From Candidatus Zixiibacteriota bacterium (GTDB lineage Bacteria > Zixibacteria > MSB-5A5 > UBA10806), in NCBI GenBank assembly GCA_020344055.1, contig CP070813.1:295551-359550 (forward strand): a DNA stretch of 64,000 bases. The letters run 5' to 3'. Each line of letters opens with the position of its first letter. Within the stretch, counting starts at the first letter, position 1. The notes beneath the pieces are model-generated. The model did no database searches and had not been told where the DNA came from. It saw only the letters and a list, made by a program, of their open reading frames with translations. The translations under genes and the position numbers were made by a program. Shown here in pieces: positions 9,393-47,825 of this stretch.

Positions 9393-9890
9393 TTATGACG
9401 ATTCCCGCTGGCTGACAATATGTCTGTCGATATAAAACAGATTGCCCGGTTTCCCTTCCACCATCTTGATCTGGTTCAAGATATCCTCCGCCGTGGCCTC
9501 CTCCTCGACCTGCTCCGAGATAAACCACTGCAGATGAGCCTGGGTGGCGTAATCGTCTTCTTCAATGGCCAGTTTATTGAGATTATTGATTAAGCCCGTT
9601 ACTTTTCTTTCGTGCTCAAGGGTCTTTTCAAACGTGTCCTGTACGGATTTGAAATCCGAGGGCGGTTCATCGATACCCTTTAATATGACCCTTCCGCCTC
9701 TTTCCTGAAGATAATCGTACAGCTTGAAGCCGTGCATTTTCTCCTCCTCGGCCTGCAAACGAAACCATTCCGCAAATCCTTTGTAGTTTTCCGATTCGCA
9801 ATAGGCGGACATGGCCAGGTAAAAATAGGAGGAATAAAACTCGGCGTTTATCTGGGCGTTGATAGCATCCTGCATTTTCTTACTGATCAT
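9393..9890 (-). CDS. ftn: Non-heme ferritin
   Basis: MISKKMQDAINAQINAEFYSSYFYLAMSAY...EEEKMHGFKLYDYLQERGG...EHERKVTGLI matches the ferritin diiron-site pattern. The ORF is open to 9914. Confidence 0.85.
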   Translation of the reverse strand: MISKKMQDAINAQINAEFYSSYFYLAMSAYCESENYKGFAEWFRLQAEEEKMHGFKLYDYLQERGGRVILKGIDEPPSDFKSVQDTFEKTLEHERKVTGLINNLNKLAIEEDDYATQAHLQWFISEQVEEEATAEDILNQIKMVEGKPGNLFYIDRHIVSQRESS

Positions 9891-14078: not shown

Positions 14079-15371
14079 TTGAAACTGGCAGTTTTAGCTT
14101 TGTTGGGGAGTGTATTATTTATTTTCACCAGTGTTTCATTAGCCCAGGCGCCGGATACCTTCTGGACAAGGATATATGGCGGGACATTCACTGACTGCGG
14201 TTATTCGGTTCAACAGACCTCTGACGGCGGATACATCATTGCCGGATATACGGAGTGCTTCGGTGCAGGTTTGGCGGATGTCTGGCTTATAAAGGCAGAT
14301 AACATCGGCGACACCCTCTGGGCGAGGACATACGGGGGACAAAATATCGATATTGGATATTCAGCTGACATTACTTCCGACGGCGGATTCATTATTGCAG
14401 GGCAAACGCAATCCTTCGGCGCGGGTGGTTCGGATGTTTATCTTATAAAGACAGATGCCAGCGGCGATACTCTGTGGACAAAAACATATGGAGGAACCGG
14501 TAATGACATCGGCTGGTCGGTTGAACAAACCTCTGATGGTGGATATATCATTGCCGGAAACACAACTTCGTTCGGTGCGGGCTCTAATGACGTCTGGCTT
14601 ATAAAAACAGATTCCAACGGGGATACGGCCTGGACAAAGACCTACGGGGGAGCAGATTCCGATGGAGGACGTTCTGTTCAGCAGACCTCTGACGGCGGAT
14701 ACATCATTACCGGAACCACATGGTCATTCGGCCCGGGTGAATATGATATTTACCTGATAAAGACAGACTCCTCCGGCGATACGCTCTGGACCCGGGCATA
14801 TGGCAGTGCGCTTTATGACTACGGTTATTCCGTCGATGTTACCTCCGATAGTGGATACATAGTCGCGGGATGCTGGCAAACGACGGTCCATCCTTACGAC
14901 AATAAGGCGGCTTATCTGATTAAGACGGATACCGGCGGCGATACTCTCTGGACGAAGATCATACCCTTTCCATGGCCGTATGTCACGGAAGAGGCTTTCT
15001 CGGTTCAGCAGACCTCCGATGACGGGTATATCGTCGGCGGGTACTCAGATCCGTACTATGGGCAGTCCAATTATGCTCTTCTTGTTAAAACGGATTCCGC
15101 CGGTGATACGCTCTGGGTAAGGAGATTTCGACTTGTCGACCAACCTTATCAACACCATGCATTTTATTCTGTTCAGCAGACCGCTGACGGCGGATATGTC
15201 GCCGTCGGGTATGGAAGGGGTTGGGATCTTTATTTCCTGAGAGGAGCCTATTTCCCCACCATCCCCACCCTCTCCGAATGGGGTATTCTCATAATGGGGT
15301 TGCTGCTGCTGGCTGTCGGAACAGCGGCCATTGTCAGAAGAAGGAGAACGGAATCGAGAGTACTGAATTAA
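14079..15371 (+). CDS. Secreted tandem-repeat (~47 aa x8, beta-propeller-like) protein with a C-terminal IPTL-CTERM sorting domain
   Basis: TTG start with RBS aaggagg 8 nt upstream. Signal peptide MKLAVLALLGSVLFIFTSVSLAQA. Repeats W(T/A)(R/K)TYGG..D.G.SV.QTSDGGYIIAG.T.SFGAG..DV(W/Y)LIKTD..GDTLW. C-terminal IPTLSEWGILIMGLLLLAVGTAAIVRRRR (15261-15368). Confidence 0.75.
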   Translation: MKLAVLALLGSVLFIFTSVSLAQAPDTFWTRIYGGTFTDCGYSVQQTSDGGYIIAGYTECFGAGLADVWLIKADNIGDTLWARTYGGQNIDIGYSADITSDGGFIIAGQTQSFGAGGSDVYLIKTDASGDTLWTKTYGGTGNDIGWSVEQTSDGGYIIAGNTTSFGAGSNDVWLIKTDSNGDTAWTKTYGGADSDGGRSVQQTSDGGYIITGTTWSFGPGEYDIYLIKTDSSGDTLWTRAYGSALYDYGYSVDVTSDSGYIVAGCWQTTVHPYDNKAAYLIKTDTGGDTLWTKIIPFPWPYVTEEAFSVQQTSDDGYIVGGYSDPYYGQSNYALLVKTDSAGDTLWVRRFRLVDQPYQHHAFYSVQQTADGGYVAVGYGRGWDLYFLRGAYFPTIPTLSEWGILIMGLLLLAVGTAAIVRRRRTESRVLN

Positions 15372-15675: not shown

Positions 15676-17088
15676 GTGCGCAATAGATTAATATTATACG
15701 GCCTTATTATTGCTTGCATGCCCCTGACATTATGGGCTGCGGTCATCCATGTCCCCGGCGATTGCCCCGCCATCCAGGCGGCGGTCGATTCCTGTGCCGG
15801 AGGCGATACGGTCATGGTCGCGCCCGGAGTTTATTCCGGCGATGGCAACCGTGATATATCCATCTTGGCAATATCTATTACCGTCATCAGTTCCGATGGC
15901 CCGCTGTGGACTATTATCGACGGTGGGAACGGCTATAAAGGCTTCAATATAATCGGTGGCGGGGCGCCTGCCACCGTCATAGAGGGCTTTACCATCCAAA
16001 ACGTCTCCTACGGGGTTTACTGCGATTCCGCTTCCGTTGTCATGAATAACGTCATCATCGAGGATTTCCTGTTCCGGGCGATTCACTTCGACGGTTTTTT
16101 ATACGACCCGCCGTTAACAGCCGATATCGATGAGTGTATAATTCACCAGATAGATCCATCATACCAGGGGACCGGCATAGGCTTCCGCGGAGCCCGGAGC
16201 GTTATCGTGTCGGTATACGGATCTATATTCAGCGATTGCCTTTACGGTTTCGAATTTCATACCCTTGAAAATCGGGTTCCCAATTTCGATATCCAAAAAT
16301 GCGTCGTTAGAAACAATCTGCTCGACGGTATCTGGACTCATTCGTGACACCAGCTTTCGCCGGCGGGTTCGGCGCAATACTGTAATTTCTCGGGCAACGA
16401 CAACTACGATATCCGCGCCGAGGCCTGCAGCGATCCCAACACCGTTATCGACGGCCGCTACAACTTCTGGGTCCGGACCGATTCGGCCAGCATAGCCGAT
16501 AGCTGCATCTTCGATCATCTTGACGATCCCGAGGCCCCCACAGTCGATTTCATGCCTTTCCTGTCCCAGCCGGGCGTGGCCGTTATCGCCGGCGTCGTTA
16601 CCGACGATTCGCTGAACCCCATCGACGCGGTGATAGTGCACGTCGAGGGGCAGATATTCTCCGACACCACCGATATAAACGGCGAATATATGATTGCCGG
16701 GCTGCAGATGGGGTATTGCGATATCTCGTTTTCGCATGACCTTTATGATGACTCCGTGGTTACCGGCCTGTTCGCCGTGATACGCGACACCGCCGTTGTC
16801 GACATGGTCCTCTTCGAATGTACCGCGGACAATTACGTGGTCGGCGACGTTAACGAGAGCGGCGACTACAACGGCCTCGATATAATTTACGGGGTCGCCT
16901 ATTTCAAAGGCGGCGACCCCCCGCCATTTCGATGCATCTGCCCGCCCCACGGGGTCTGGCATCTGGCCGGCGACGTCAACGCCAGCTGCAGCTACAACGG
17001 CCTCGATATTACCTACGGGGTCAACTACCTCAAAGGGATAATCCCGGAACGGCTCCCCTGCCCCGACTGCCCGCCGATCGGGTCGTAG
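15676..17088 (+). pseudogene. Secreted right-handed beta-helix (pectate-lyase-like PbH1) + CarboxypepD_reg-like + dockerin-like-tail protein, interrupted by one in-frame TGA (16345-16347)
   Basis: ORFs 15661..16347 and 16552..17088 are in the same frame. Manual translation across the single TGA is continuous and sensible (...DGIWTHS*HQLSPAGSAQYCNFSGNDNYDIRAEACSDPNTVIDGRYNFWVRTDS...). N-terminal AVIHVPGDCPAIQAAVDSCAGGDTVMVAPGVYSG is the classic PbH1 start. C-terminal CTADNYVVGDVNESGDYNGLDIIYGVAYFKGG...CPDCPPIGS tail. Confidence 0.6.
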
Positions 17089-17138
17089 GCGGTCGGTTCA
17101 TCCGGCCGCGCATAAACCCCTTGACACCTTCTACTGAG

Positions 17139-17291
17139 CCGTCAGGAATCCTTTCCTGACGGTTTAAGACCACCTCAATTGTCATTCCCGAAATCGCTAA
17201 TCGGGAATCTATTATGGGCCAGTTGCAGTAGGTCGAAAGGCTTGCCTTTCGACAACCAGAGTGTCGAAACCATAAAGGTTTCGACCTACTG
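17139..17291. repeat. Cluster of short structured repeat modules: GTCAGG...CCTGACGGTTTA hairpin, attcccga...tcgggaat hairpin, and a 66-nt double hairpin
   Basis: GTCAGGaatcctttCCTGAC (17139-17160); gtcATTCCCGAaatcgctaaTCGGGAATc; cagtaggtcgaaaggcttgcctttcgacaaccagagtgtcgaaaccataaaggtttcgacctactg (17226-17291) holds two perfect hairpins (10-bp and 9-bp stems) plus an outer inverted repeat. The same modules recur at 18523-18680 in a different order. Confidence 0.6.
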
Positions 17292-17296
17292 CCTTC

Positions 17297-17500
17297 CCGC
17301 GTCCGTAGGCGGTCGGTTCATCCGGCCGCGGCCAAGTAGCGATCACGAATGCAAATTCGACAATCCACTTGACAGCAAGTTAAAATGGATTATCTTATAC
17401 ACACAACACGTTCGGCCTACTTTGATCGACTGCAAGGCTGAAATTGGATACGACGAGTTAGCGCCTTTGGATAGACAAACAGATTCAACGGAGGTCTGAG
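17297..17500 (+). promoter_or_regulatory. Conserved ~200-nt promoter/5' leader module shared with the 19007 gene
   Basis: Starts GTAGGCGGTCGGTTCATCCGGCCGCG (near-palindromic hairpin), then ...GCAAATTCGACAATCCACTTGACAGCAAG with a TTGACA -35-like hexamer at 17369-17374, then a conserved RBS region aacGGAGGtctgagGTG. It aligns with 18812-19006 along its whole length; a 27-nt identical fragment also sits at 17085-17111. Confidence 0.5.
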
Positions 17501-18514
17501 GTGAAGAGAGTTATTTCGTATTTTTCCAGATTGATTTTTATAGCTTGCCCCTTACTCGTATTTGTTTTTTCAAATGCCCGCCCAACGGAAAGGATGGTAT
17601 TAGGGGAGTTTTTTAATAATACAGGATGTCCCTACTGTCCTCCGGCAAGCCAGGTTTTGGACCAGTTAGTACAGAATTATGATTCAAACTTCGTTTCAAT
17701 CAGGTATCACATATGGTGGCCATTCTCAAACGATCCTTTCTGGCTGTACAATCAAGGCGAAATCGAGATAAGAAAAATTTACTATAATATTAGTTCCGTG
17801 CCACGTTGTTTTTTTGATGGATCTATTGATGGGGGCGGCGCCTACGGGAATTGGGAGACAATAGTCCAGGATCGAATCTTAGTTGACTCGCCGCTGGACA
17901 TCAGATCTTTTGCAGCTTTTGATAGCGTTTCTTTAACCGGCGATTTAAATATATATGTTATCGCGACGTCTAATATTTCGCAATCCGATTTAAAATTGAG
18001 AATCGCCATTACGGAAAATAACCTGGATTATGGCGGCAGTACATATAATCAGGTTTTCAGGGATATGATTCCGAGTACTGAAGGGATACCTTTTATTATA
18101 ACGGAGGGAGATACGGTAGAGTTTTTTGAGCAATATAGCTGCCCCGCGCCTTTGATTTATCAAAATTGTGAAATTGTCGTTTTTGTACAATCCGATGTTG
18201 ACAGGGAAATACTTCAGTGTAATAGGATAAAAATCCCGGAGGATCTGGTGGCGTGCAACTACGTAGTTGGGGATATCAACGGCAGCGACAGCTATAATGG
18301 TCTCGATGTAACCTACGGCGTGGCCTACCTCAAGGGCGGCAGCCCACCGCCGTTCTCCTGCGAATGTCCCCCGCACGGCGCCTGGTACGTGGCCGGCGAC
18401 GTTAACGCCAGCTGCAATTACAACGGTTTGGATATTACCTACGGCGTTAATTACCTCAAGGGGGTAATACCCATACTGCTCCCCTGCCCCGACTGCCCGC
18501 CGTCAGGGGAGTAA
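17501..18514 (+). CDS. Secreted thioredoxin/glutaredoxin-like (CPYC motif) protein with a dockerin-like Cys-containing C-terminal tail
   Basis: GTG start with GGAGG 8 nt upstream; signal peptide. VLGEFFNNTGCPYCPPASQVLDQLVQNY has a thioredoxin-fold beta-alpha layout with a CxxC. C-terminal CNYVVGDINGSDSYNGLDVTYGVAYLKGG...CECPP...GDVNASCNYNGLDITYGVNYLKG...PCPDCPPSGE (18254-18511). Confidence 0.6.
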   Translation: MKRVISYFSRLIFIACPLLVFVFSNARPTERMVLGEFFNNTGCPYCPPASQVLDQLVQNYDSNFVSIRYHIWWPFSNDPFWLYNQGEIEIRKIYYNISSVPRCFFDGSIDGGGAYGNWETIVQDRILVDSPLDIRSFAAFDSVSLTGDLNIYVIATSNISQSDLKLRIAITENNLDYGGSTYNQVFRDMIPSTEGIPFIITEGDTVEFFEQYSCPAPLIYQNCEIVVFVQSDVDREILQCNRIKIPEDLVACNYVVGDINGSDSYNGLDVTYGVAYLKGGSPPPFSCECPPHGAWYVAGDVNASCNYNGLDITYGVNYLKGVIPILLPCPDCPPSGE

Positions 18515-18522
18515 ATGCGTTA

Positions 18523-18680
18523 CAGTAGGTCGAAAGGCTTGCCTTTCGACAATCCGAGTGTCGAAACCATAAAGGTTTCGACCTACGCAACTGCCCGCCG
18601 GTGGGGCCGTAACAACCCATGCGCCGTCATGAATCCGATCCTGACGGTTTATTGTGTCATTCCTGCGAAAGCAGGAATCC
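18523..18680. repeat. Second copy of the structured repeat modules (double hairpin, GTCA(t)G..CCTGACGGTTTA, attcctgc-gaaa-gcaggaat hairpin)
   Basis: cagtaggtcgaaaggcttgcctttcgacaatccgagtgtcgaaaccataaaggtttcgacctac (18523-18586) is near-identical to 17226-17289. Followed by cctgacggttta and gtcATTCCTGCgaaaGCAGGAATcc. Confidence 0.6.
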
Positions 18681-18754
18681 ATAAAGAAAGGCCATTATGG
18701 ATGCCGGATCAAGTCCGGCACGACGATAAGATGATCTGAGATTAATTGTTTATT

Positions 18755-18797
18755 TAATTATATCCGTATCTTTTCTAGCTCCGCCTCCCCCGCCTAC
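18755..18797. repeat. 45-bp direct repeat copy A; a fragment identical to the 3' end plus stop of the PP-loop gene at 21563
   Basis: TTAATTATATCCGTATCTTTTCTAGCTCCGCCTCCCCCGCC. On the minus strand it would encode ...GEAELEKIRI*, matching the C-terminus of the 21563..22573 protein. Pairs with 21553-21597. Confidence 0.7.
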
Positions 18798-18811
18798 GCT
18801 ATCTGCTGGCT

Positions 18812-19006
18812 GTAGGCGATCGGTTCATCCGGCGGCGAGCAGGTAACGATAATGAACGCAAATTCGAAAATTCACTTGACAGCAATCTATTATCAATTAA
18901 CTTATAGCAGCAACGAAACTTGCCCGCTTTGATCAACTGCGTATTTGAGATGAAGACATTGGCAGAAAGCCTAAAAATAGATAAATAGATTCATCGGGGG
19001 TCTGAG
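18812..19006 (+). promoter_or_regulatory. Second copy of the conserved promoter/5' leader module
   Basis: GTAGGCGATCGGTTCATCCGGCGGCG...GCAAATTCGAAAATTCACTTGACAGCAAT (TTGACA at 18876-18881) ... ttcatcGGGGGtctgagATG. Alignable to 17297-17500, with more divergence in the 3' half. Confidence 0.5.
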
Positions 19007-21427
19007 ATGATGAGGATTTTAGTTTCCGGTTTTTCATTATTTTTCTTAATGATATCGTTACCTACATCCATCAGCAATACGCAGTCCACACTTGACGAAG
19101 ATCCGCAAGAGCACCAGGCAATGACAAATCTATTTTCTTTACCATTTTACTTTACAGAAAATCTTGGACAATGGGGAGAAAAAACGCTTTTCAAAACCGA
19201 GACCGTTGGAGCATCTTTCTATTTTTGTAAAGACGAAGTGGCATATCTATTTGTAAGGAAAACGGACGAATTAATGGATGAGGATTCTTCCATCCGCAAA
19301 ATGATGGGAATGGATGATAAATTTTATAGGCCGCCGTATAAGAAAGAAGCCGTTCTCGTGAAAGTTCAGTTTTTGAATGCCAATCCCAATCCCGAAGTCA
19401 TTGGTATTGATCGTTTGTCTCACAATAATAATTACTTTTATGGCAACGATCCTTCATTGTGGCAAACGAATGCACGTAATTATTCGGCAATTGCATACAA
19501 GGATATATACGCTGGAATCGATCTAAAATATCGCGCCAATGGCAGATCGATGAAGTATGATTTTATTGTCAATCCCGGTGCTGATTATTCGCAAATTCGG
19601 CTTCGCTTTGACGGTATAGAGGATTTAAGTGTCACAGCCACAGGCGATTTGCTGATAGAAACGTCACTTAACCCAGTTTACGAAAAGGCTCCTTCCATTT
19701 ATCAGGAAATCAAGGGAGAAAAACGGGAAATATCAGGCCGATATAATGTAACGGAGCCGGGAATCCTTAGTTTTGCTTTGGAAGAAGAATTTAATCCTCA
19801 TTATCCATTAATTATTGATCCAGAACTACTCTTCAGCACATATCTTGGAGGATCCGATGCAGATGAGATGTTCGAAATAGCTCTCGATACAGATAACGAT
19901 GTCTATGTTTGTGGCATTAGCGATTCCTATGATTTTCCGCTCCTCAATCCCTACGATAGCACAGTTAACGGCAATGACGCGGTAGTTTCAAAATTCGCAT
20001 CGTCAGGGGAAACGCTATTATATAGCACTTTCATAGGCGGTGGGCAATCCGACGTAGCTTATGATATAACGGTTGACCTTAACGGTAATGCGTATGTTAC
20101 CGGTATAGCTTATTCGTCCAATTTTCCGGTTATAAATGGTTATGATGAGATTTTCGATGGTGGCGCCGATGCATTCGTACTTAAATTATCAAGAGAAGGC
20201 GATTCTCTAGAGTATAGTACATTTCTGGGAGGAGGTGGCGGAGAGGTCGGTCGTGGTATCTGCCTAGATTATGAAAATAACGCATACATTACAGGCTACA
20301 CGAACTCTTCGGATTTCCCCATCGTTAATGCATATGATGAATACCTGGGAGGGATTGACGATGTTTTTATAACAAAATTATCATCGTTCGGGAATAGCCT
20401 TATATATAGCACTTACCTTGGTGGATCATCGGATGAACAGGCCCGCGGTATCGATGTTGATTCCGAAGGAAACGCATTTGTAACTGGATATACATCCTCT
20501 TCAGATTTTCCTGTGGTTAACGCATATGATGATAGCTATAACGGAAATATCGACGTATTTGTAAGTGGATTATGGCAGACGGGCGATTCACTCATATATA
20601 GTACTTATATAGGTGGAAGTGACGAAGATAGGGGCGCCGGAGTGGTTGTTGATATAAACGGTAATACGTATATAACCGGAACTACGCTCTCTTCGGATTT
20701 TCCAACTATACAAGCTTTGGACAGTAGCTACAATGGCGATCTGGACGGTTTTGTGTGCAAAATGCCACCTATTGGCAATTCTATAACATATAGTTCTTAT
20801 TTTGGTGGATCTGGAGATGATGGAGGTACGGATATTTGCGTAGATATATGTGAAAATGTATATATTACCGGAGGAACGTTCTCGCCTGATTTTCCGACAT
20901 TTAATGCATATGATTCCACCTACAATAATTGGCATGATGTATTCGTTATCAAACTATTCTCGACAGGAAACATCATTATATATAGCACTCTTTTAGGCGG
21001 AGGCTTTAGAGAGATCGCATATGGTATCAGCATCGATTCGGCAGGAAGCGCATATATTACGGGATATACCATGTCTTCAGATTTTCCGCTCGTCAATCCC
21101 TGTTTTGGAAATTTCGCCGGTTCATTTGATGCGTTTGTGGCCAAATTTGGGCCAAGTTTGGATACGGTTTGCATTTATGTAATTGGCGATGTTAATGCCA
21201 GCGGTGATTACAATTCTCTCGATATATCATTTGGAGTAACATATTTCAAGGGCGGCGAATTTCCGATTTGCGAACCTTGTTGGCTATGTAGTGATTGGTA
21301 CTATTGCGGTGATGTCAACGGTAGCTGTAATTATAATGGGCTGGATATTACGTATGGTGTCAGGTATCTTAAAGATGAACTACCAGAACTAATCCCTTGT
21401 CCCGACTGCCAACTAACGATGCAGTAG
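19007..21427 (+). CDS. Secreted SBBP-type beta-propeller repeat protein with a dockerin-like Cys-containing C-terminal tail
   Basis: Signal peptide MMRILVSGFSLFFLMISLPTS. Repeated units YSTFLGG...D.g.GI.vD..GNAYvTG.T.SSDFP..NAYD (x8-9) follow the SBBP pattern. C-terminal CIYVIGDVNASGDYNSLDISFGVTYFKGG...CGDVNGSCNYNGLDITYGVRYLK...PCPDCQLTMQ (21170-21424). By eye this gene is lower in GC than its neighbours. Confidence 0.7.
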   Translation: MMRILVSGFSLFFLMISLPTSISNTQSTLDEDPQEHQAMTNLFSLPFYFTENLGQWGEKTLFKTETVGASFYFCKDEVAYLFVRKTDELMDEDSSIRKMMGMDDKFYRPPYKKEAVLVKVQFLNANPNPEVIGIDRLSHNNNYFYGNDPSLWQTNARNYSAIAYKDIYAGIDLKYRANGRSMKYDFIVNPGADYSQIRLRFDGIEDLSVTATGDLLIETSLNPVYEKAPSIYQEIKGEKREISGRYNVTEPGILSFALEEEFNPHYPLIIDPELLFSTYLGGSDADEMFEIALDTDNDVYVCGISDSYDFPLLNPYDSTVNGNDAVVSKFASSGETLLYSTFIGGGQSDVAYDITVDLNGNAYVTGIAYSSNFPVINGYDEIFDGGADAFVLKLSREGDSLEYSTFLGGGGGEVGRGICLDYENNAYITGYTNSSDFPIVNAYDEYLGGIDDVFITKLSSFGNSLIYSTYLGGSSDEQARGIDVDSEGNAFVTGYTSSSDFPVVNAYDDSYNGNIDVFVSGLWQTGDSLIYSTYIGGSDEDRGAGVVVDINGNTYITGTTLSSDFPTIQALDSSYNGDLDGFVCKMPPIGNSITYSSYFGGSGDDGGTDICVDICENVYITGGTFSPDFPTFNAYDSTYNNWHDVFVIKLFSTGNIIIYSTLLGGGFREIAYGISIDSAGSAYITGYTMSSDFPLVNPCFGNFAGSFDAFVAKFGPSLDTVCIYVIGDVNASGDYNSLDISFGVTYFKGGEFPICEPCWLCSDWYYCGDVNGSCNYNGLDITYGVRYLKDELPELIPCPDCQLTMQ

Positions 21428-21552: not shown

Positions 21553-21597
21553 TTAATTTTAATTATATCCGTATCTTTTCCAGCTCCGCCTCCCCCG
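21553..21597. repeat. 45-bp direct repeat copy B; the genuine 3' end of the PP-loop ATPase gene
   Basis: TTAATTATATCCGTATCTTTTCCAGCTCCGCCTCCCCCGCC; one mismatch to 18755-18797. Confidence 0.7.
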
Positions 21598-22573
21598 CCG
21601 GAGCGGTCTCCAGGGCCCCGTCACCGTTCCGGGCGACATAGGTTACTCGCAGAAGCGGTTCGTTTTTGCCGTCGCAGTAGCGCGCTACCACCGAGGCGGC
21701 GGTCTTCATGACCGTCTCATCGGCCTCCCCCCGCAATAGCCCGATCGGGGAGCCGAACTCCAGAACCTCCATTATGCAATCGTCCGGCCGCCGCAGCGAT
21801 TCGATCAGATCGTTTTCCCGTTCATCCCGCCCCACCACCAGCTTGACCCTGTCGCTCAACCGGAAATGCCGTCCTACCCTGAGCAGGTTCAGGTCGTTGA
21901 AATCGGGATCGGGATCGTATTTCAGAAGATCGCGCAGGCGGTCCGAATAACGTTCGTCGGTGAGCAGGCATCCGGCGGCGGGGTTGGGATATTCGGATAG
22001 GCCGAACTGTTCGGCCAGCGCCATCTGGCGTTTGCGGGAACGTCCCTCGATATCCAGAAGCCACTCCCTTTGTATCAGCCCCTCTTTTTCCGGTACGGTG
22101 GGGGGGAGGAGCCTGCCGCAAAGCGGCCGCACCAGCCGCCCCTCCAGGCCGCAGTTCTTGGCGATCAGGTCAAGTGTGAAACGCCTCTGCGACATGGGCC
22201 GTTGACCCAGCACCTCGCCGGTTATCACGAACTGCCCGCCGGTAAGCTCCATGTAATCCCTTGCCTCGGCCAGCATCACCAGCCGGCAGTCGATGCAGGG
22301 GTTCATGTTTCTGCCGCGCCCGTAACGGGGATTTTTCACGATATCGATGAATTTCTGCCCCAGGTGTGCCAGCTTCACCCTGAAGCCGAACTTTTCGGCG
22401 GCAGGGTAGGGGTCGTGCCCGCAGGTCGATCTGTCGGAGGCGTCGCAGCCGAAATGGGTCATGAAGGTTATCGCCTCCACCTCCACGCCGTATTTCATCA
22501 TCTGCAGTATCGCCAGCGTGGAATCCAGGCCGCCGGAATACAACGCTGCCGCCTTTACCTTGATTTTGCTCAC
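21563..22573 (-). CDS. PP-loop ATPase (adenine nucleotide alpha-hydrolase superfamily); ThiI/MnmA-like putative tRNA sulfurtransferase lacking a THUMP domain
   Basis: PP-loop SGGLDS near the N-terminus (KAAALYSGGLDSTLAIL). NPCIDCRL and ITGEVLGQRPMSQR resemble ThiI/MnmA-type motifs. ~120-aa C-terminal extension. Exact function uncertain. Confidence 0.5.
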   Translation of the reverse strand: MSKIKVKAAALYSGGLDSTLAILQMMKYGVEVEAITFMTHFGCDASDRSTCGHDPYPAAEKFGFRVKLAHLGQKFIDIVKNPRYGRGRNMNPCIDCRLVMLAEARDYMELTGGQFVITGEVLGQRPMSQRRFTLDLIAKNCGLEGRLVRPLCGRLLPPTVPEKEGLIQREWLLDIEGRSRKRQMALAEQFGLSEYPNPAAGCLLTDERYSDRLRDLLKYDPDPDFNDLNLLRVGRHFRLSDRVKLVVGRDERENDLIESLRRPDDCIMEVLEFGSPIGLLRGEADETVMKTAASVVARYCDGKNEPLLRVTYVARNGDGALETAPAGEAELEKIRI

Positions 22574-27394: not shown

Positions 27395-27482
27395 GTAGGT
27401 CGGAAGCCCCGCCGAAGGCGGGGCGCTTCCGACGTCAGGATTAATAAGTTTTTTTGTCTGGAGCCGGGGGCTCCCGACCTAC
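27395..27482 (-). other. Structured RNA-like element in the lipB leader: outer stem GTAGGTCGG/CCGACCTAC enclosing two GC-rich hairpins
   Basis: gtaggtcgg [GAAGCCCCGCC-gaa-GGCGGGGCGCTTC] cgacgtcaggattaataagtttttttgtct [GGAGCC-ggg-GGCTCC] ccgacctac. It lies between the ferredoxin terminator and the lipB start, so it is transcribed with lipB on the minus strand. Confidence 0.35.
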
Positions 27483-27509
27483 TCGACTACTCGACTGTTA
27501 CCGTGGCCC

Positions 27510-41974: not shown

Positions 41975-43396
41975 ATGAAGAGGTTTGGTATTACGATTAT
42001 GTTTATTTTTTCGGCGGTATCATATACCGGGGCGCAGGATACGCTCTGGACCGGCCATTATGGCCTTATTGACACCACTGAATTGGGCTATTGCGGGGAT
42101 ATTACATCTGATGGAGGGTTTATCGTGGGAGGCGAGTCGAGCAAATTTCTTAACGGGGATATGTGGCTGGTTCGTTGCGATGCAAACGGCGATACTCTAT
42201 GGACTCGTAATTACGGCGCCGCGAGGTGGCAAATGGCCTATTCCGTTATTCAGACGTCAGATGAAGGCTTTATCGCCTGCGGCGAATATAGCGTGGCCGT
42301 GGGTGATTATGATATGTACGTGGTTCGAGTCGACCCCGCGGGCGATACCCTGTGGACTCGCCTGTTCGGGACCGTGGATCAGAATGATTATGGAAGAGAA
42401 ATTATTCAGACCTCCGATGGAGGTTTCCTGGCGCTGGGTCAAGGATATGGTACCAGCGGCTCCAGCGACCTCTATATGGCCAAAATAGATGAATCCGGAA
42501 ATCTGACCTGGAGCAAAACATACGGTTATAGCGGCGGTAGCGAATACGGCTATGGAGCGGTGCAGTTGCCTGACGACGGATATGCGATTGCCGGAAGCTA
42601 TGCCTATTTGTCAACCTCGGATCTCTGGCTTTTGAGAACCGATTCCAACGGGGACACTCTGTGGACCGAGAGATTTGATTTTCATGGTGATGTAGATCGA
42701 GGGGATGATATCGAGATAGCCGACGACGGTGGATTTGTAATTGCCGGGAGGACGAAAAATGCCGGAAACATGCGCCTTTTAACCATGAAAACCGATTCGC
42801 TCGGAAATATGCTCTGGTGGCGCGAATATGGTAGCTCCAGTTCCGATTTCGCCGAATCGATCGATAAAACCTCGGATGGCGGCTTTGTTATCTGCGGCGG
42901 AGCTAACGCTTATCCCTTTGATTTCTTTGTTGTTCGTATAAGCGCCATCGGTGACTCCCTTTGGGCCGGTATATATGATTATGATGGAATACCAGGAGAT
43001 TCCGATGATTCCTTCGAGGTAAGAGTCCATCCAAATGGAGATATAATGGTGTTCGGCTACGCCGACGTCAAAACCGGCACCGGCGCCGACAACGACTTCT
43101 GGGTTGTTAAAATACATGATGGCGCCCTTCAGCAACCGGGTTGCGAGTACGCTGTGGGCGACGCCAACAACAGCGGCAGCCTTAACGGCCTGGATGTCAC
43201 CTATGGCGTGGCCTTTTTCAAGGGAGGCCCCATGCCTCCGTACGAGTGCGAATGCACGCCGGGGAACACCTGGTTTGTGGCCGGCGACGTTAACGCCTCC
43301 TGCTCCTATAACGGCCTTGATATAACATATCTGGTGAATTACTTTAAAGGCGGATCGGATGTCGAACCGTGCGCCGACTGTCCGCCGGCCGGTTAA
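41975..43396 (+). CDS. Secreted beta-propeller-like tandem-repeat protein with a dockerin-like Cys-containing C-terminal tail (paralog of 14079 and 43415)
   Basis: Signal peptide MKRFGITIMFIFSAVSYTGAQ. Repeats WTR.YG...TSDGGF...G...DMWLVR.D.NGDTLW. Tail CEYAVGDANNSGSLNGLDVTYGVAFFKGG..CECTP...GDVNASCSYNGLDITYLVNYFKGG..PCADCPPAG (43142-43393). Confidence 0.75.
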   Translation: MKRFGITIMFIFSAVSYTGAQDTLWTGHYGLIDTTELGYCGDITSDGGFIVGGESSKFLNGDMWLVRCDANGDTLWTRNYGAARWQMAYSVIQTSDEGFIACGEYSVAVGDYDMYVVRVDPAGDTLWTRLFGTVDQNDYGREIIQTSDGGFLALGQGYGTSGSSDLYMAKIDESGNLTWSKTYGYSGGSEYGYGAVQLPDDGYAIAGSYAYLSTSDLWLLRTDSNGDTLWTERFDFHGDVDRGDDIEIADDGGFVIAGRTKNAGNMRLLTMKTDSLGNMLWWREYGSSSSDFAESIDKTSDGGFVICGGANAYPFDFFVVRISAIGDSLWAGIYDYDGIPGDSDDSFEVRVHPNGDIMVFGYADVKTGTGADNDFWVVKIHDGALQQPGCEYAVGDANNSGSLNGLDVTYGVAFFKGGPMPPYECECTPGNTWFVAGDVNASCSYNGLDITYLVNYFKGGSDVEPCADCPPAG

Positions 43397-43414
43397 ACAC
43401 TGATAGAATAGTTT

Positions 43415-44875
43415 GTGGCGGAGTATAAAATGAAAAAATCTGTATTTCTGGCAATCGCGTTCTCGCTTTTTGTCTCAAACGCTCTCGTGGCGCAGGATAG
43501 TCTCTGGAGCAGGTTTTACGGGCATACCGGAAATGGAGGAGTTTTTGACAGCGATCGCGGAATGTGCGGAACTGTCGCCTCGGATGGGGGTTATGCTATC
43601 GGAGGCGTTTCTTACGCGTTCCAGGGGCTGCTGTCCGAATTCTGGCTGGTTAGAACTGACTCAAACGGGGATACACTCTGGACAAGAAATTACGGGACCG
43701 TCGGATTTGAAGAAGCTCATTATCTGATCCAGACCGATGACGGCGGGTACGTATTATGCGGCGACACCAAACCCTCGGGAGGAAATTATAATTTATATAT
43801 AGTCAGAACCGATTCGCTGGGCGATACCCTCTGGACCCGGAGTTTCGGTTCGCCCGCCGGCGACGATAAAGGATGGGCTATTGTCCAGACCGATGACGGC
43901 GGATTTCTGGCGGTCGGCCACGGGTACGGGTCCGGCTGGGATGTTTATATGGTCAGGTTGAATGAATCCGGAGACTCTTTATGGTCGAAAAAATATGGCG
44001 GAAGCCATCCGGATGCCGCCTACGGAGTCACGCAAACGGCCGACGGCGGTTTTGCCCTGGTCGGGCAGTATGCCAACGATGACTTTGGCGATACCGATCT
44101 GTGGTTATTACGCGTCGATTCTCTGGGCGATACTCTCTGGACCCGGAAATACAGCTACAGCGGCGGATGGTCTCGAGGTGAAGCTATCGCGAAAACCTCC
44201 GACGGAGGGTTCGTTATCGCCGGTCAAAACTGGCTGACACTGACCAATGTTGTGATGCTTCTGGTTCGTACCGATTCCCTGGGCAACGAAATCTGGCATA
44301 AAGAATACGGAGGCCCCAATATCGATAACGCCATGTCGCTCGATATCACCTCCGACGGCGGAATTGTTGCCGGGGGACAAACCGATTCCTTCGGTGGCGG
44401 CAACAAAGATTTTTACATTGTCAGGACCGATTCGAGCGGTGATTCTCTTTGGTCAGCGGTTTTCGGCCATAACGGAATCGATTATTGCCACGAAATCAGG
44501 GTCGATCCGTCCGGCGATATAATGGCTTTCGGCCAGCACCATATATACGGCAGCCAGGATTTCGACTACTGGATGATAAAGATAGCCGACAGTACCGCGC
44601 AAAGTGGATGCGAGTATGTCGTCGGCGATGTCAATGACAGCGACAGCTATAACGGTCTTGATATCACTTATGGGGTCAACTTCTTCAAGGGCGGTTCCGA
44701 TCCGATGTGTCCTTTCGGTTCCTGTTCTATTTCTCCTTGCGACACGTTTTTCTACTGCGGAGATGTCAATGGCAGCTGTTCGTATAATGGCTTAGATATT
44801 ACCTACGGGGTTGCGTATTTCAAAAGCGGTCCCGATCCGATTCCCTGCCCCGATTGCCCGCCGACGGGCGATTAA
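43415..44875 (+). CDS. Secreted beta-propeller-like tandem-repeat protein with a dockerin-like Cys-containing C-terminal tail
   Basis: Signal peptide MKKSVFLAIAFSLFVSNALVAQ. Same repeat family. Tail CEYVVGDVNDSDSYNGLDITYGVNFFKGG..CGDVNGSCSYNGLDITYGVAYFKSG..PCPDCPPTGD (44609-44872). Confidence 0.75.
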   Translation: MAEYKMKKSVFLAIAFSLFVSNALVAQDSLWSRFYGHTGNGGVFDSDRGMCGTVASDGGYAIGGVSYAFQGLLSEFWLVRTDSNGDTLWTRNYGTVGFEEAHYLIQTDDGGYVLCGDTKPSGGNYNLYIVRTDSLGDTLWTRSFGSPAGDDKGWAIVQTDDGGFLAVGHGYGSGWDVYMVRLNESGDSLWSKKYGGSHPDAAYGVTQTADGGFALVGQYANDDFGDTDLWLLRVDSLGDTLWTRKYSYSGGWSRGEAIAKTSDGGFVIAGQNWLTLTNVVMLLVRTDSLGNEIWHKEYGGPNIDNAMSLDITSDGGIVAGGQTDSFGGGNKDFYIVRTDSSGDSLWSAVFGHNGIDYCHEIRVDPSGDIMAFGQHHIYGSQDFDYWMIKIADSTAQSGCEYVVGDVNDSDSYNGLDITYGVNFFKGGSDPMCPFGSCSISPCDTFFYCGDVNGSCSYNGLDITYGVAYFKSGPDPIPCPDCPPTGD

Positions 44876-45017
44876 AACCTTGACAACCTTTTAGATATCA
44901 GTATCTTAAATATATCATCGCGCGCTGTCATCTTTGAAAAATTATTATGTCAATATCGGGTGGGGGATTATTAAGATTCATAGGAAAATAAGTGTTTTAA
45001 AGGGTCGGAGGTGTGTG

Positions 45018-47825
45018 ATGTTTTATTTTCCAGTCCGCAAATCGATTGTTATTCTGTCAACAATGTTTTTATCCGTATTTATTATTACGGCAGCGTTGGC
45101 GCAAAAACCTAAGGTTAAGCTAGAACCGGTCTTGTTTGATAATTTTGAAAGCAGAACTCCCGAAGAGTTGTACGTGCCCGAACACATAACCAAAAAACCC
45201 GGCCACTACACCATCACCGACTGGCAAAACGCCATAGATTCAACCTGGGGATGGGGACGGATTAAATCTCAGAAGCTCGATATTTTTGATTCTGTTTGGA
45301 TGGCAATCGATGGAGAATTCGCCTGCTTTGTTAATCATCCAGATTATTATCCCGGGATGTGGATCGATCTGTACACTCTCTATCGAACGGAGATAGATAC
45401 AGGTAATCCTACATACGGCGTCAGCAGAGGTCGGTTTGCGGCCATCATGAATTACCTGACATTGGCTTTGAAAGAAAGCCATACTGAAGCCTGCGACCGT
45501 GATGTGAATCTTTACACATCTCTTTCACCCGGTGTTCCTCTGTTGGTTCTGGGGCCCTTCGGTGATAACGGACATTTCGGGGCGGGTTTAACCCCCCTTC
45601 CCGACAGCACCTCGCTGGTTTATAGAACCGTGCTGAATCATCCCCTTGGATTAGAGCCCGGTGACATCGTATTGGGTTATGATGGTATCCCCTGGAAAGA
45701 GCTTTATTTCGATCTCATAGACGCCCAGCTTCCTCTATATAGCTATTGGTATGAGGGGAGTTGTGAAAGCGCCTATACCCACGCATGGCTGATGAGCGCG
45801 GGCATGAACTGGCATCTTTTCGACACGCTCGATATCGTAAAATACGGAACCGGCGATACGCTTCATTTATCGGTACAACCATTGATCGGCCAGAACATGA
45901 CTCTTTTCTGCTCGGAACAAATGGACATACCGGGCGTCCCCATGCCGGATTTAAGTCAGGGTATACTCGCAAGTTACGGAGTTATCTCCGGAACCCAGAT
46001 CGGCTACATTTACGTCTGGGGCTGGTATGATGAGGATGTTGAATCACAATTCTATGACGCAGTAAGCGCGTTAGTTAGCAATCCTGATATCACCGGATTA
46101 ATCATAGACCTCAGGTTGAACTGGGGAGGTGAACATCATCTGGCAAATGCTGGATTAAATTTAATCTTCAATACGAAAGAATTAGGATTTGGCTATGGCG
46201 AACGCTGTTCTCCAACTGATCATCTTCTGATGTGTCCTAACGATTTTGCCTATTATCATTATATATACGGATCCGCCAAAGCCTATTTCGATAAGCCAAT
46301 TGCTGTCTTAACAGGTCCTGGTGCGCACAGCGCGGGAGATGTCTTTGCAATTACAATGAAACCGCATCCGATGACAAGGTTCTTTGGAAAGGCGTCGGAA
46401 TCCGCATTTAACGTTCCGGTTTATGTCAGTACTGGATATTCGGATTGGCGTTTTCGCAACGCAATTTGGAATGAGTACATGCTTGATGACCCCTCCAATT
46501 ATCTCACCCATTCCGAATTGGAAATTGATGAGTATATATGGCTTTCTCCATCCGATGTCGCCCAGGGTTTCGATACCGTTGTGGAGAGCGCCAGGAGCTG
46601 GATAAACAGCCAGCAGGGTTTACAGCCAGATATATCTGCCGATTCTACGAGTTATAATGTTACTCTTGATTACGGGGAGATTATGTCTGAGACCTTGATA
46701 ATAAACAATAACGGTAGCCGCACGCTGTTTTACTCTCTAACACCGGAAGTCGATTCCGGAACTGTCTATATGTCGAAAAAACTGCCATCGACCACGGGTC
46801 ATGGGGGTTATGATGATTACGGCTATACCTGGATAGATTCGGATCAGCCGCATGGCCCGGCTTTCAGCTGGGTAGATATTTCCGGGATCGGTACCCCCGT
46901 AAGCCTTGGAGATGATTCGTATGTGGGTCCCATAGATATCGGATTTACCTTCCCATTCTACGGCGACGACCATTCGGAGCTTTATATATGCTCTAACGGT
47001 CTTATAACTTTCGGAGCAGGTTCGGGAGTTTATAATAACACACATATTCCCGGCTCCGGCTCTCCGAATAATTTTGTTGCCCCCTGGTGGGATGATCTTA
47101 ATCCCGCAATCGGGGGAGAAGTTTATTTCCATTCAGATGAAGAACGCTTTATTGTGAGCTTTATAGGAGTTCCCAAATATGGTTATGTAAGTTCTGCCAC
47201 TTTCCAAGCGATACTTTATCCTGATGGTCAAATAGAATTCAATTACCTCAACACCGACCTTGAATACGTAGGTTTCTGGGATTTCTATACTACAACCATC
47301 GGCATAGAAAATTCGGGTGGTTCCGATGGACTCGAGATTTATTATAATGCCCCCTACACTATCGATAGCCTTAGTATTTTAATCAATACCGACTGGCTGG
47401 CCGTGAATCCCCACAGCAGCTACATCGCCCCTGGAGATAATGATACGGCCACAGTAACATTCAGTTCAAAGCATCTCGCCCTGGGGATATATACAGGGGA
47501 TATATATCTCGATTCTAATGATCCTACCGATTCGCTGATTATTATTCCGGTATCGCTTACGGTGACCGGAGGTTGCGATTATGTAACCGGTGATGTCAAC
47601 GGCAGTGATAGCTATAACGGCCTTGATATTACCTATGGCGTCAACTTCTTTAAAGGCGGGAGCGACCCGATGTGTCCTGAATGCGGTCTCTGCCCCGATT
47701 GGCACTACTGTGGCGATGTCAACGGAAGCTGCAGTTACAATGGCTTAGATATTACCTATGGTGTGGCTTATTTCAAGGGCGGCGATGCTCCGGTTCCCTG
47801 CGCCGACTGCCCGCCCATAGATTGA
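45018..47825 (+). CDS. Secreted peptidase S41 (C-terminal processing/tail-specific protease-like) with a dockerin-like Cys-containing C-terminal tail
   Basis: GGAGG 6 nt before the ATG at 45018; signal peptide MFYFPVRKSIVILSTMFLSVFIITAALAQ. S41 motifs GLIIDLRLNWGGEHHLA and PIAVLTGPGAHSAGDVFA. Tail CDYVTGDVNGSDSYNGLDITYGVNFFKGG..CGDVNGSCSYNGLDITYGVAYFKGG..PCADCPPID (47574-47822); TGA stop. The ORF is open from 44934. Confidence 0.7.
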   Translation: MFYFPVRKSIVILSTMFLSVFIITAALAQKPKVKLEPVLFDNFESRTPEELYVPEHITKKPGHYTITDWQNAIDSTWGWGRIKSQKLDIFDSVWMAIDGEFACFVNHPDYYPGMWIDLYTLYRTEIDTGNPTYGVSRGRFAAIMNYLTLALKESHTEACDRDVNLYTSLSPGVPLLVLGPFGDNGHFGAGLTPLPDSTSLVYRTVLNHPLGLEPGDIVLGYDGIPWKELYFDLIDAQLPLYSYWYEGSCESAYTHAWLMSAGMNWHLFDTLDIVKYGTGDTLHLSVQPLIGQNMTLFCSEQMDIPGVPMPDLSQGILASYGVISGTQIGYIYVWGWYDEDVESQFYDAVSALVSNPDITGLIIDLRLNWGGEHHLANAGLNLIFNTKELGFGYGERCSPTDHLLMCPNDFAYYHYIYGSAKAYFDKPIAVLTGPGAHSAGDVFAITMKPHPMTRFFGKASESAFNVPVYVSTGYSDWRFRNAIWNEYMLDDPSNYLTHSELEIDEYIWLSPSDVAQGFDTVVESARSWINSQQGLQPDISADSTSYNVTLDYGEIMSETLIINNNGSRTLFYSLTPEVDSGTVYMSKKLPSTTGHGGYDDYGYTWIDSDQPHGPAFSWVDISGIGTPVSLGDDSYVGPIDIGFTFPFYGDDHSELYICSNGLITFGAGSGVYNNTHIPGSGSPNNFVAPWWDDLNPAIGGEVYFHSDEERFIVSFIGVPKYGYVSSATFQAILYPDGQIEFNYLNTDLEYVGFWDFYTTTIGIENSGGSDGLEIYYNAPYTIDSLSILINTDWLAVNPHSSYIAPGDNDTATVTFSSKHLALGIYTGDIYLDSNDPTDSLIIIPVSLTVTGGCDYVTGDVNGSDSYNGLDITYGVNFFKGGSDPMCPECGLCPDWHYCGDVNGSCSYNGLDITYGVAYFKGGDAPVPCADCPPID

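Follow-up and report, generated by a model that had tools for sequence, protein, structure and literature searches.

A probable mosaic of REP-type palindromic repeats, including GTAG-type REPINs, behind two paralogous genes in Zixibacteria

Results

The analysed window (the whole 64-kb stretch of DNA) contains two genes, ending at 17088 and 18514, which have a common tail of 263 nt with 75% identity and which are both followed by an intergenic region rich in short palindromic sequences (Table 1). As originally predicted, the two intergenic regions have three hairpin modules in common but in a different order: ii-iii-i behind the first gene and i-ii-iii behind the second. The two arrangements are cyclic permutations of each other in which modules ii and iii remain neighbours, and the strand orientation of all three modules is unchanged. 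The structured character of the modules was borne out by folding, with predicted RNA fold energies of -25 to -37 kcal/mol that are far better than those of shuffled sequences (z -4.7 to -7.9); the palindromic doublets are equally stable on both strands. A fourth hairpin (module iv) and three copies of a GTAG hairpin, here termed box A, had been missed by the original prediction. Further downstream, the promoter/leader blocks of the two regions are duplicated (81% identity), and promoter-like hexamers are found at 17357-17396. The relic of a gene end at 18753-18809 indicates past rearrangement of this region.

Module i had been described as a double hairpin, and it is indeed formed by two perfect stems, one measuring 10 bp (9 bp if the loop is taken as 4 nt) and the other 9 bp. 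The repeat comprises positions 17222-17289 and 18519-18586 (96% identity), its outer inverted repeat is longer in copy 1 (14 nt) than in copy 2 (11 nt), and neither hairpin sequence was encountered in 100 shuffles of the window. The hairpins read GTAGGTCGAAA-GGCttGCC-TTTCGAC and GTAGGTCGAAA-CCtttatGG-TTTCGAC, each with GTAG at the 5' side on its own strand. Written out in full (GTAG-GTCGAAAGG-cttg-CCTTTCGAC and GTAG-GTCGAAACC-tttat-GGTTTCGAC), both are short palindromes with an unpaired GTAG at one end, i.e. the layout by which we recognised GTAG-type REPs (stem of 6-13 bp, short loop). Such inverted pairs with GTAG on the outside have been called head-to-head dimers (PMC3733652). The REPs are identical in the two window copies and in the sister chromosome CP070742.1, while the spacers vary; the two window copies and the unrelated locus L008 combine identical REPs with three different 9-nt spacers. 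Conserved REPs with variable spacers are the pattern described for REPINs (10.1101/2021.07.10.451892). The sequences directly flanking the two copies are unrelated to each other, and in copy 2 the GTAG begins 10 nt past the stop codon (18512-18514) of the preceding gene. Integron attC sites were also considered and dropped: the conserved ends are GTAGGTCG and CGACCTAC, which, as far as can be read from their letters, are unlike attC core sites.

Two open reading frames overlapping the modules (17179-17499 and 18515-18739) had been regarded as spurious and as encoding near-identical peptides because of this repeat. Module i does encode a common peptide in the same frame of both, SRSKGLPFDN(Q/P)SVETIKVSTY, but the near identity holds for a stretch of 22 residues only, as the open reading frames have nothing else in common.

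Genome and metagenome collections were scanned for the doublet pattern GTAGGTCGAAA-N5-12-TTTCGAC-N5-14-GTCGAAA, which yielded 21 genomic loci, most of them in Candidatus Zixiibacteriota MAGs, and 27 metagenomic loci. BLAST similarity between the window and these 48 unrelated loci is limited to 17227-17290 and 18524-18587, which correspond to the ends of the element, and the neighbouring genes show no DNA similarity to the window beyond it. Altogether, 107 REP singlets (54 distinct) were collected across 56 sequences. Related genomes thus contain numerous copies. Among the 35 distinct 27-mers, to which the covariation count was confined because 26-nt REPs suffered from a misplaced gap in the mixed MAFFT alignment, pairing is preserved in 98.4% of the cells of the stem and the two apical stem pairs covary (CG 17, GC 16, AU 1, UG 1; and CG 20, GC 11, UA 2, UG 1). 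The covariation score was reached by none of 500 shuffles and collapsed in slid controls; the outer seven stem pairs are uninformative in this respect, as they are fixed by the search pattern. The GTAG tag is conserved at 90% or more among the 35 distinct family members.

The family is predominantly extragenic, with 84 of the 107 singlets outside and 23 inside a crude ORF mask spanning 83% of all bases. According to crude gene calls, singlets lie between tandem (29) or convergent (26) and only twice between divergent genes. The variant heterodimer pair is specific to each MAG and is repeated on different contigs, for example in DAOWMZ01 with five identical copies of GTCTTGAC across four contigs. 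Classical REPIN hosts harbour hundreds of copies. Here, the strict doublet pattern was found at one to four loci per MAG and at a single locus in the complete sister chromosome; other MAGs showed 2-10 singlets within the pieces fetched. The 64-kb window contains four significant singlets, representing two doublets, plus one related doublet, and no more significant copies were retrieved when the window was searched with a profile of aligned REPs. The related doublet is the lipB-upstream element with which a common core had been predicted: GTAGGTCG is present there, and the adjoining gene encodes a lipoyl ligase B-type protein.

REP-associated tyrosine transposases (RAYTs) are Y1 HUH enzymes. 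Homologs of E. coli rayT adjoin or are located near REPs at two of the loci (L027 and L038), and six of the eight Zixibacteria RAYT genes whose flanks were read (P0078, P0100, P0241, P0257, P0264, P0342) are bracketed on both sides by GTAGGTCGAAA..TTTCGAC REPs in inverted orientation. Four RAYTs scanned against NCBIfam NF047646 'REP-associated tyrosine transposase' (P0001, P0014, P0078, P0100) scored 94-144 bits with a cut-off of 80, and P0078 is similar to TnpA-REP (PDB 4ER8; E 1.9e-22), the alignment including the HUH and Tyr motifs. The RAYT clade of this REP family includes hundreds of proteins, many of them labelled Zixibacteria. The 64-kb window itself yielded no RAYT: Pfam analysis of ten small window ORFs detected no Y1 transposase, and tblastn with E. 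coli RayT gave no match in the window and the first 21 loci, with matches appearing only once metagenome loci were included. Since the best 120 hits of two RAYT homolog searches include no protein from the source chromosome (3,831,389 bp) or from its sister (3,744,838 bp), the REPINs described here may be orphans.

The predicted repeat of module ii is genuine, with TCCTGACGGTTTA present exactly at 17154 and 18639, although the stem of copy 2 is imperfect (GTCATG). Family members with compensatory stem changes were detected at L035, L036, L044 and L048, and module ii represents a third family of dispersed palindromes. Likewise, module iii could be confirmed: the motif GTCATTCC..GGAAT occurs in the window only at 17181-17208 and 18656-18678, with 0.06 matches expected by chance. 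In about 400 kb of Zixibacteria-type loci this motif has ten matches, nine with complementary stems and one (L001) unpaired, including the compensatory variants CCGA/TCGG, CCAG/CTGG, CCGC/GCGG, CGGG/CCCG and CTGC/GCAG; within these loci, module iii thus belongs to a dispersed multi-copy family with stem covariation. Near-identical copies of module iii are present at the unrelated locus L008 (1780-1807) and in the orthologous intergenic region of L060. REPs of the CGTC type consist of a CGTC, TGTC or CCTC tag, an 8-9-bp stem starting with AT, a 4-5-nt loop and a CCA tail (PMC3733652). Module iii copy 2 and module iv, which together form a head-to-head dimer, show this layout, and the former matches the description of CGTC-1 (PMC3733652), whereas module iii copy 1 departs from it by a 9-nt loop and a CTA tail. 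Judged by their sequence, modules iii and iv both conform to the layout of CGTC/dRS3-type REPs.

At the ortholog locus L060, where the neighbouring gene is 77% identical, the homologous intergenic region contains module iii with a conserved stem and a diverged loop, while modules i and ii are absent. The L060 gene terminates in the TAG of a box A, as does the gene 16552-17088 of the window, for which the TAG of box A copy 1 doubles as stop codon. We considered box A as another dispersed REP but dropped this assignment; being present only in this gene cluster and its orthologs, box A is better regarded as belonging to the duplicated junction of the cassettes.

Table 1. Palindromic elements in the window
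Feature	Position	Strand	Description
Box A copy 1	17085-17110	+	GTAG and hairpin GCGGTCGG-ttcat-CCGGCCGC; exact repeat; -16.3 kcal/mol, z -3.5
Module ii copy 1	17139-17166	+	Palindrome CCGTCAGGAA-tcct-TTCCTGACGG, then TTTA
Module iii copy 1	17180-17211	+	TGTC-ATTCCCGA-aatcgctaa-TCGGGAAT-CTA; CGTC-type variant with long loop
Module i copy 1	17228-17289	both	Probable REPIN, head-to-head heterodimer
REP a, copy 1	17228-17253	+	GTAGGTCGAAAGGCTTGCCTTTCGAC
REP b, copy 1	17263-17289	-	GTAGGTCGAAACCTTTATGGTTTCGAC; spacer to REP a 9 nt
Box A copy 2	17305-17330	+	Opens duplicated promoter/leader block 17305-17399
Module i copy 2	18525-18586	both	Probable REPIN; REPs identical to copy 1, spacer differs at 2 of 9 positions
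REP a, copy 2	18525-18550	+	
REP b, copy 2	18560-18586	-	
Module ii copy 2	18624-18651	+	CCGTCATGAATCCGATCCTGACGG, then TTTA; stem imperfect
Module iii copy 2	18655-18681	+	TGTC-ATTCCTGC-gaaa-GCAGGAAT-CCA; CGTC-type
Module iv	18698-18725	-	CGTC-GTGCCGGA-cttga-TCCGGCAT-CCA; read from sequence
Box A copy 3	18812-18837	+	2 mismatches; start of duplicated promoter/leader block 18812-18906
Related GTAG doublet	27395-27483		GTAGGTCGGAAGC..GCTTCCGAC (+), GTAGGTCGGGAGCCcccGGCTCC (-); between ferredoxin-like ORF and lipB

Discussion

The modules can be regarded as REP palindromes of the ordinary bacterial type. Such repeats are small mobile DNA elements of a known kind, found here in a little-studied phylum, and no new mechanism is revealed by them. 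Their original classification as 'REP/MITE-like structured repeats' was correct and can now be specified: module i is very probably a GTAG-type REPIN whose family is spread through Zixibacteria and flanks RAYT genes in related genomes, and module iii shows the CGTC/dRS3-type layout. We likewise consider it very probable that both intergenic regions represent a mosaic of REP-type palindromic repeats. By analogy to E. coli TnpA-REP, a RAYT would recognise GTAG and hairpin on single-stranded DNA and would cut and rejoin the DNA there, and through this activity the doublets would multiply and persist at extragenic sites, most of them behind genes. If transcription reads through from the upstream genes, the hairpins would secondarily form very stable RNA stem-loops, which may protect mRNA 3' ends and, in the case of module i copy 2, might affect translation termination. 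Two observations bear indirectly on transposition, namely that module i is missing from the homologous intergenic region of L060 and that the flanks at the 48 loci are unrelated.

Compared to the REP-BIME/TnpA-REP system of E. coli and the REPINs of Pseudomonas fluorescens, module i shows the same unpaired 5' GTAG, 9-bp stem and 4-5-nt loop, the same inverted arrangement of two conserved REPs around a variable spacer with the GTAG ends facing outwards, the same extragenic location mostly behind genes with genome-specific variants and, in related Zixibacteria, the same bracketing of RAYT genes by inverted REPs. It differs from known GTAG REPINs in its very short spacer (9 nt), in the invariably heterodimeric nature of the doublet (one REP with apical GG..CC or GT..AC, the other with CC..GG), and in that there are apparently a few copies per genome rather than hundreds in the genomes scanned. 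The host phylum is also different: GTAG repeats have been listed for Proteobacteria, Cyanobacteria, Chloroflexi and the PVC group, Zixibacteria (FCB group) not being among them (PMC3733652).

REPs of the CGTC type include Neisseria dRS3, Rickettsia RPE-6/RPE-4 and the families CGTC-1 to CGTC-4 (Di Nocera et al. 2013). Modules iii and iv agree with these in the CGTC or TGTC tag, the 8-bp stem, the 4- or 5-nt loop and the CCA tail, in the AT at the start of the module iii stem, in their head-to-head arrangement and in having no linked transposase, but the stem of module iv opens with a G-T pair, and module iii copy 1 deviates in loop and tail. We know of no transposase for the CGTC/dRS3 class. 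The interleaving of several unrelated palindrome families, whose order varies, in a single intergenic region downstream of genes is likewise known from E. coli BIMEs and Neisseria NIMEs, and the same mixing of families is found at the Zixibacteria loci L008 and L014; the clusters described here are small, however, consisting of three to five elements, and they contain neither the accessory motifs of BIMEs nor the RS units of NIMEs.

Instead of being REP-type repeats maintained by a transposase, the modules might mainly be RNA elements of 3' untranslated regions, i.e. terminators, barriers against 3' exonucleases or small RNAs, that are kept by selection on gene expression. The location directly behind genes, with module i REPs rarely between divergent genes at the fetched loci, the very stable folds, and the conservation of the module iii stem but not its loop between the window and L060 are consistent with this explanation. 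Module i copy 2, at a distance of 10 nt from a stop codon, is also within the 15-nt range that has been linked to translational control (PMC12306157). Yet a scan of 16800-19200 on both strands for intrinsic terminators (a G+C-rich hairpin directly followed by a T-run) retrieved none, with 2.9 expected from shuffled sequences, and the stretches that follow the hairpins read TGCCTTCC, GCAACTGC and GGTTTA; the terminator function originally proposed is therefore not supported. The alternative suggestion of small RNAs received no positive support either, as in an Rfam search of 16500-19500 (E up to 10) no family reached its threshold; the best match, a weak partial one to FtrB (E 0.78; 23.8 bits, with the threshold at 66), owes its score to the hairpins of modules iii and iv and was accompanied by a chance snoRNA match. 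In addition, the palindromic doublets fold alike on both strands, and an RNA role leaves unexplained why RAYT genes are bracketed by the same REP. As the main explanation we therefore regard an RNA function as rather unlikely. An RNA role and a transposase role are compatible and not mutually exclusive.

It is quite improbable that the module sets are leftovers of a local tandem duplication of a cassette (promoter, gene, dockerin-like tail, box A) which was later scrambled by deletions, with no mobile or family-level elements involved. The similar gene tails and promoter/leader blocks, the triplication of box A, the preserved module orientation, the cyclic permutation with modules ii and iii still adjacent, and the gene-end relic as a sign of rearrangement would all be in agreement with such a history, and, separated by 1.3 kb and situated in paralogous gene cassettes, the two copies of module i could be the product of a local duplication. 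However, each module has relatives at unrelated loci of other genomes, with similarity ending at the module ends, the immediate flanks of the two module i copies are unrelated, and L060 possesses module iii without modules i or ii. Local duplication may thus account for this pair of copies, but not for the nature of the elements. There is hardly any chance that the GTCGAAA/TTTCGAC palindromes are double-stranded operators bound by a dimeric transcription factor of the neighbouring surface-protein genes: each element does provide four half-sites near promoter-like hexamers, but covariation keeps intrastrand pairing and not a fixed half-site sequence, most copies follow genes and only 2 of 57 are flanked by divergent ones, the genes around the element at the 48 loci are without DNA similarity to the window outside it, and an invariant unpaired GTAG tag is a typical property of REPs.

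Accepting the modules as REP-type repeats, a more far-reaching scenario can be conceived. NIME/dRS3 clusters are thought to shuffle gene cassettes by recombination in Neisseria. In a similar way, Zixibacteria might possess their own old, vertically inherited REPIN-RAYT partnership with obligate heterodimers and very small populations, and the REP mosaics behind dockerin-tailed surface-protein genes might serve as recombination points at which cassettes are shuffled; this scenario is speculative, and we would not expect it to hold. To our knowledge, work on REPs and REPINs has been confined almost entirely to Proteobacteria. The presence of a family of GTAG REPs together with a RAYT clade of their own in an uncultured phylum of the FCB group thus widens the known range of this system and offers a clean REP-RAYT pair for tests of sequence recognition. 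The REP mosaics also mark rearrangement-prone intergenic regions, and with respect to genome annotation the REP elements explain the two spurious open reading frames at this locus, which should not be called as genes.

Structured repeats in the two intergenic regions

The REP reading of the original prediction is supported and can be made more precise by GTAG hairpins, their relatives in other genomes, the flanks of RAYT genes and a CGTC layout: the elements are GTAG REPs (short tagged palindromic repeats) and REPINs (inverted REP doublets) with RAYT, the REP-associated tyrosine transposase, together with CGTC-type REPs, in Zixibacteria. All three predicted modules (i, ii and iii) are present in both intergenic regions (see table), which follow a gene with a CarboxypepD_reg domain and a dockerin-like tail and an Omp28-related gene with a tail of the same kind. 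As had been proposed, their order is permuted: the first region reads ii-iii-i and the second i-ii-iii. The permutation is cyclic, with ii and iii adjacent in both. Chance occurrence of these modules is not expected, and they fold far better than shuffled sequence. A fourth hairpin (module iv) and a separate GTAG hairpin (box A) had been overlooked. The spurious ORFs 17179-17499 and 18515-18739, described as encoding near-identical peptides, are alike only over the 22 residues that module i specifies.

Positions of the repeats and regions in the window
Feature	Position	Strand	Structure or context
First intergenic region	17089-17500		between gene ending 17088 and gene starting 17501
Second intergenic region	18515-19006		between gene 17501-18514 and beta-propeller-repeat gene starting 19007
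Module i	17222-17289; 18519-18586		two perfect hairpins, outer inverted repeat; copies 96% identical
Module i hairpin		+	GTAGGTCGAAA-GGCttGCC-TTTCGAC
Module i hairpin		-	GTAGGTCGAAA-CCtttatGG-TTTCGAC
Module ii	17154; 18639		terminal TCCTGACGGTTTA
Module iii	17181; 18656		GTCATTCC..GGAAT; nowhere else in window
Module iii copy 1	17180-17211	+	TGTC ATTCCCGA aatcgctaa TCGGGAAT CTA; variant of CGTC layout (9-nt loop, CTA tail)
Module iii copy 2	18655-18681	+	TGTC ATTCCTGC gaaa GCAGGAAT CCA; full fit to CGTC layout
Module iv	18698-18725	-	CGTC GTGCCGGA cttga TCCGGCAT CCA; full fit except G-T pair at stem start
Box A	17085; 17305; 18812		GTAG hairpin, three copies
68-nt coding repeat	16842-17035; 18268-18461; 21184-21374; 43156-47778		dockerin-like

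Both hairpins of module i open with GTAG, each on its own strand. REPs are recognised by an unpaired GTAG ahead of a short palindrome. An inverted REP pair with GTAG outermost is the head-to-head dimer of Di Nocera et al. 2013 (PMC3733652), named REPIN by Bertels and Rainey. The element between a ferredoxin-like ORF and lipB (27395-27483), with which the modules had been said to share a core sequence, follows the module i plan with a different stem (GTAGGTCGGAAGC...).

A second REP superfamily, which includes Neisseria dRS3, has a CGTC (often TGTC) tag, an 8-9 bp stem beginning with AT, a 4-5 nt loop and a CCA tail; its members occur mainly as head-to-head dimers and without a linked transposase (PMC3733652). 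Such a head-to-head dimer is formed by module iii copy 2 and module iv, and the long-loop variant of module iii is nearly unchanged both in L008, an unrelated locus, and in L060, which carries an ortholog of gene 17501-18514. Ten module iii-type matches were found in about 400 kb of loci fetched from other genomes and metagenomes; nine of these stems are complementary with compensatory changes and one, in L001, is unpaired. A weak Rfam FtrB match arises from this type of hairpin. Module iii copy 2 (18656-18682) translates to VIPAKAGIH, resembling a peptide frequent in spurious hypothetical proteins called across CGTC/dRS3-type repeats.

Module ii (CCGTCAGG..CCTGACGG) bears neither REP tag, GTAG or CGTC; relatives with compensatory changes occur at four fetched loci (L035, L036, L044, L048), twice beside a REPIN. 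Its stem (GTCAGGAA..TTCCTGAC) is similar to that of the REP flanking RAYT P0310, where GTAGGTCAGGATCcctgcGATCCTGAC lies on both sides of the gene (L070 1440-1500 and 2005-2045); module ii lacks the GTAG tag of such REPs. Despite this likeness, module ii is left unassigned, as a palindrome family apart. The repeat families are also mixed in varying order at L008 and L014, so permuted order is a general trait of these Zixibacteria mosaics, as it is of BIMEs and NIMEs.

Relatives of module i in other genomes

A scan pattern that fixed the doublet arrangement and, within the stem, no more than the outer seven pairs detected 21 loci in the genome collection and 27 further loci in metagenomes. The genome loci belong mostly to Candidatus Zixiibacteriota MAGs, the remainder to two Ignavibacteria-type MAGs, one FCB-group MAG (two loci) and some sequences labelled only uncultured bacterium. 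By BLAST, the window resembles these loci only at 17227-17290 and 18524-18587, and module i thus has sharp ends and lies in unrelated contexts. A relaxed search yielded 107 REP singlets (54 distinct). In 35 distinct 27-mers, 98.4% of the cells of the 9-bp stem are paired, and the two apical pairs, which the pattern had left free, show strong covariation (CG/GC/AU/UG); the score observed was not attained in any of 500 shuffles, and sliding the partners makes the pairing collapse. The variant REP pair is specific to each MAG and recurs on different contigs; between the window and the complete sister chromosome CP070742.1 the REPs are identical, with spacers of three different kinds.

Only 23 of the 107 singlets fall inside the ORF mask, although this crude mask takes in 83% of bases, and most of these lie within spurious ORFs like the window's own. 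By crude gene calls, singlets are found in tandem (29), convergent (26) and divergent (2) contexts, and REPs elsewhere show a matching positional pattern (PMC3733652). Strict doublets are few per genome (only one in CP070742.1), and the 64-kb window contains only four significant singlets. REP tandem arrays are unusual, and head-to-tail REP pairs are rare; L030 carries eight head-to-tail singlets (GTAGGTCGAAACACCAGTTTCGAC) with a 29-nt period (9400-9665, minus strand), followed by two copies of another GTAG hairpin, GTAGCGGCGAAACTAGGGTTTCGCCGTAC.

Association with RAYT transposases

When E. coli rayT (NC_000913.3) was compared with the fetched loci by tblastn, a truncated RAYT gene was detected about 150 nt from GTAGGTCGAAA REPs (L027), as was a RAYT with flanking REPs of the sister type GTAGGTCCGACA.. 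(L038). Homolog searches with the L027 protein and with P0078 returned 158 Y1_Tnp proteins (about 167 residues, several labelled Zixibacteria) and 666 proteins, respectively. All four proteins scanned (P0001, P0014, P0078, P0100) score 94-144 bits on the NCBIfam equivalog model REP-associated tyrosine transposase (cut-off 80 bits), and P0078 matches the solved TnpA-REP (PDB 4ER8; E 1.9e-22) with the HUH motif and catalytic tyrosine region aligned. The flanks of eight RAYTs were inspected, and six (P0078, P0100, P0241, P0257, P0264, P0342) are bracketed by GTAGGTCGAAA..TTTCGAC REPs in inverted orientation, a few to about 60 nt from the gene. This is the defining REP-RAYT arrangement. P0310 is flanked by GTAGGTCAGGATC..GATCCTGAC and P0014 by GTAGGGCAGAACC..GGTTCTGCC. 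The MAGs JAQUSF01 and JAFGNW01 combine an inspected RAYT gene with dispersed REPIN loci. No RAYT was found in the 64-kb window (Pfam on ten small ORFs; tblastn with E. coli RayT), and none from the source chromosome was among the best 120 matches of the two homolog searches; the window REPINs may represent a small or decaying population.

REPs beside RAYT genes at L053 3505-3580, L067 2005-2080 and L071 (1440-1500 and 2005-2080) carry a G+C-rich loop insert of 30-45 nt, itself a hairpin, which dispersed copies lack. An identical P0100 protein is encoded in six contigs (L054-L059), where the right flank (two small ORFs, PorV, LptE) is kept and the left flanks are of three kinds, which suggests rearrangement of this RAYT locus; a further Y1_Tnp gene lies at 236-733 in L054.

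Local history

The window comes from a Zixibacteria chromosome of 3.83 Mb, and the homologous protein P0121 is 100% identical to the window gene product across the 85% covered. The L060 ortholog of gene 17501-18514 is 77% identical, with a homologous upstream region in which module iii and a promoter/leader block are kept. Modules i and ii are absent from it, so either the window lineage acquired them or the other lineage lost them. On the 3' side of the ortholog only box A is present. In the first region the ii-iii-i segment is enclosed by two identical box A copies. The module area has clearly been rearranged, and a gene-end relic at 18753-18809, inside the second region, marks a past rearrangement; it is 86% identical to 21558-21614, where the minus-strand gene 21563-22573 (ThiI/NFACT-R_2 domains) has its 3' end. 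Local duplication could be the source of the pair of module i copies in this window, but it leaves the nature of the elements unchanged.

Possible function

The REP classification rests on tool results, whereas functional points are drawn from E. coli and Pseudomonas. By this analogy, RAYT would recognise GTAG plus hairpin on single-stranded DNA and would spread the doublets, and the hairpins, predicted by folding to be very stable as RNA, may also act at the RNA level. REPs at most 15 nt past a stop codon are linked to translational control in E. coli (PMC12306157), a range that includes module i copy 2 (10 nt past the stop). The suggestion that the modules are terminators is not supported, as no hairpin with a T-run behind it was found in 16800-19200.

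Zixibacteria are absent from the phyla given for GTAG repeats in PMC3733652, and among literature on Zixibacteria and RAYT we found no title or abstract concerned with REPs. The elements are of a known kind, in a host phylum beyond that list.

Neighbouring repeats

A duplicated block (17305-17399 and 18812-18906; also L060 560-739) combines box A with a promoter-like pair, TTGACA..TATCTT, and with a conserved leader; this leader ends in AATAGATAAATAGATTCATCGGAGGT ahead of the start codon. It precedes both genes following the intergenic regions, is kept in the ortholog of the first and may be a shared regulatory leader. At 17085-17088 and L060 1753-1756 the TAG stop of the dockerin-tailed gene is the TAG of the box A GTAG, so that the hairpin starts within the stop codon both in the window and in the neighbouring gene's ortholog.

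The 68-nt coding repeat (GDVN.S..YNGLDITYGV.Y.KG) has twelve window copies, which pair up to form the C-terminal tails of six or more genes. These genes lie in two clusters, in which 14079-15371 and genes in 41975-44875 have a common 156-nt periodic repeat. The genes with the 68-nt repeat are a family of tailed surface proteins.
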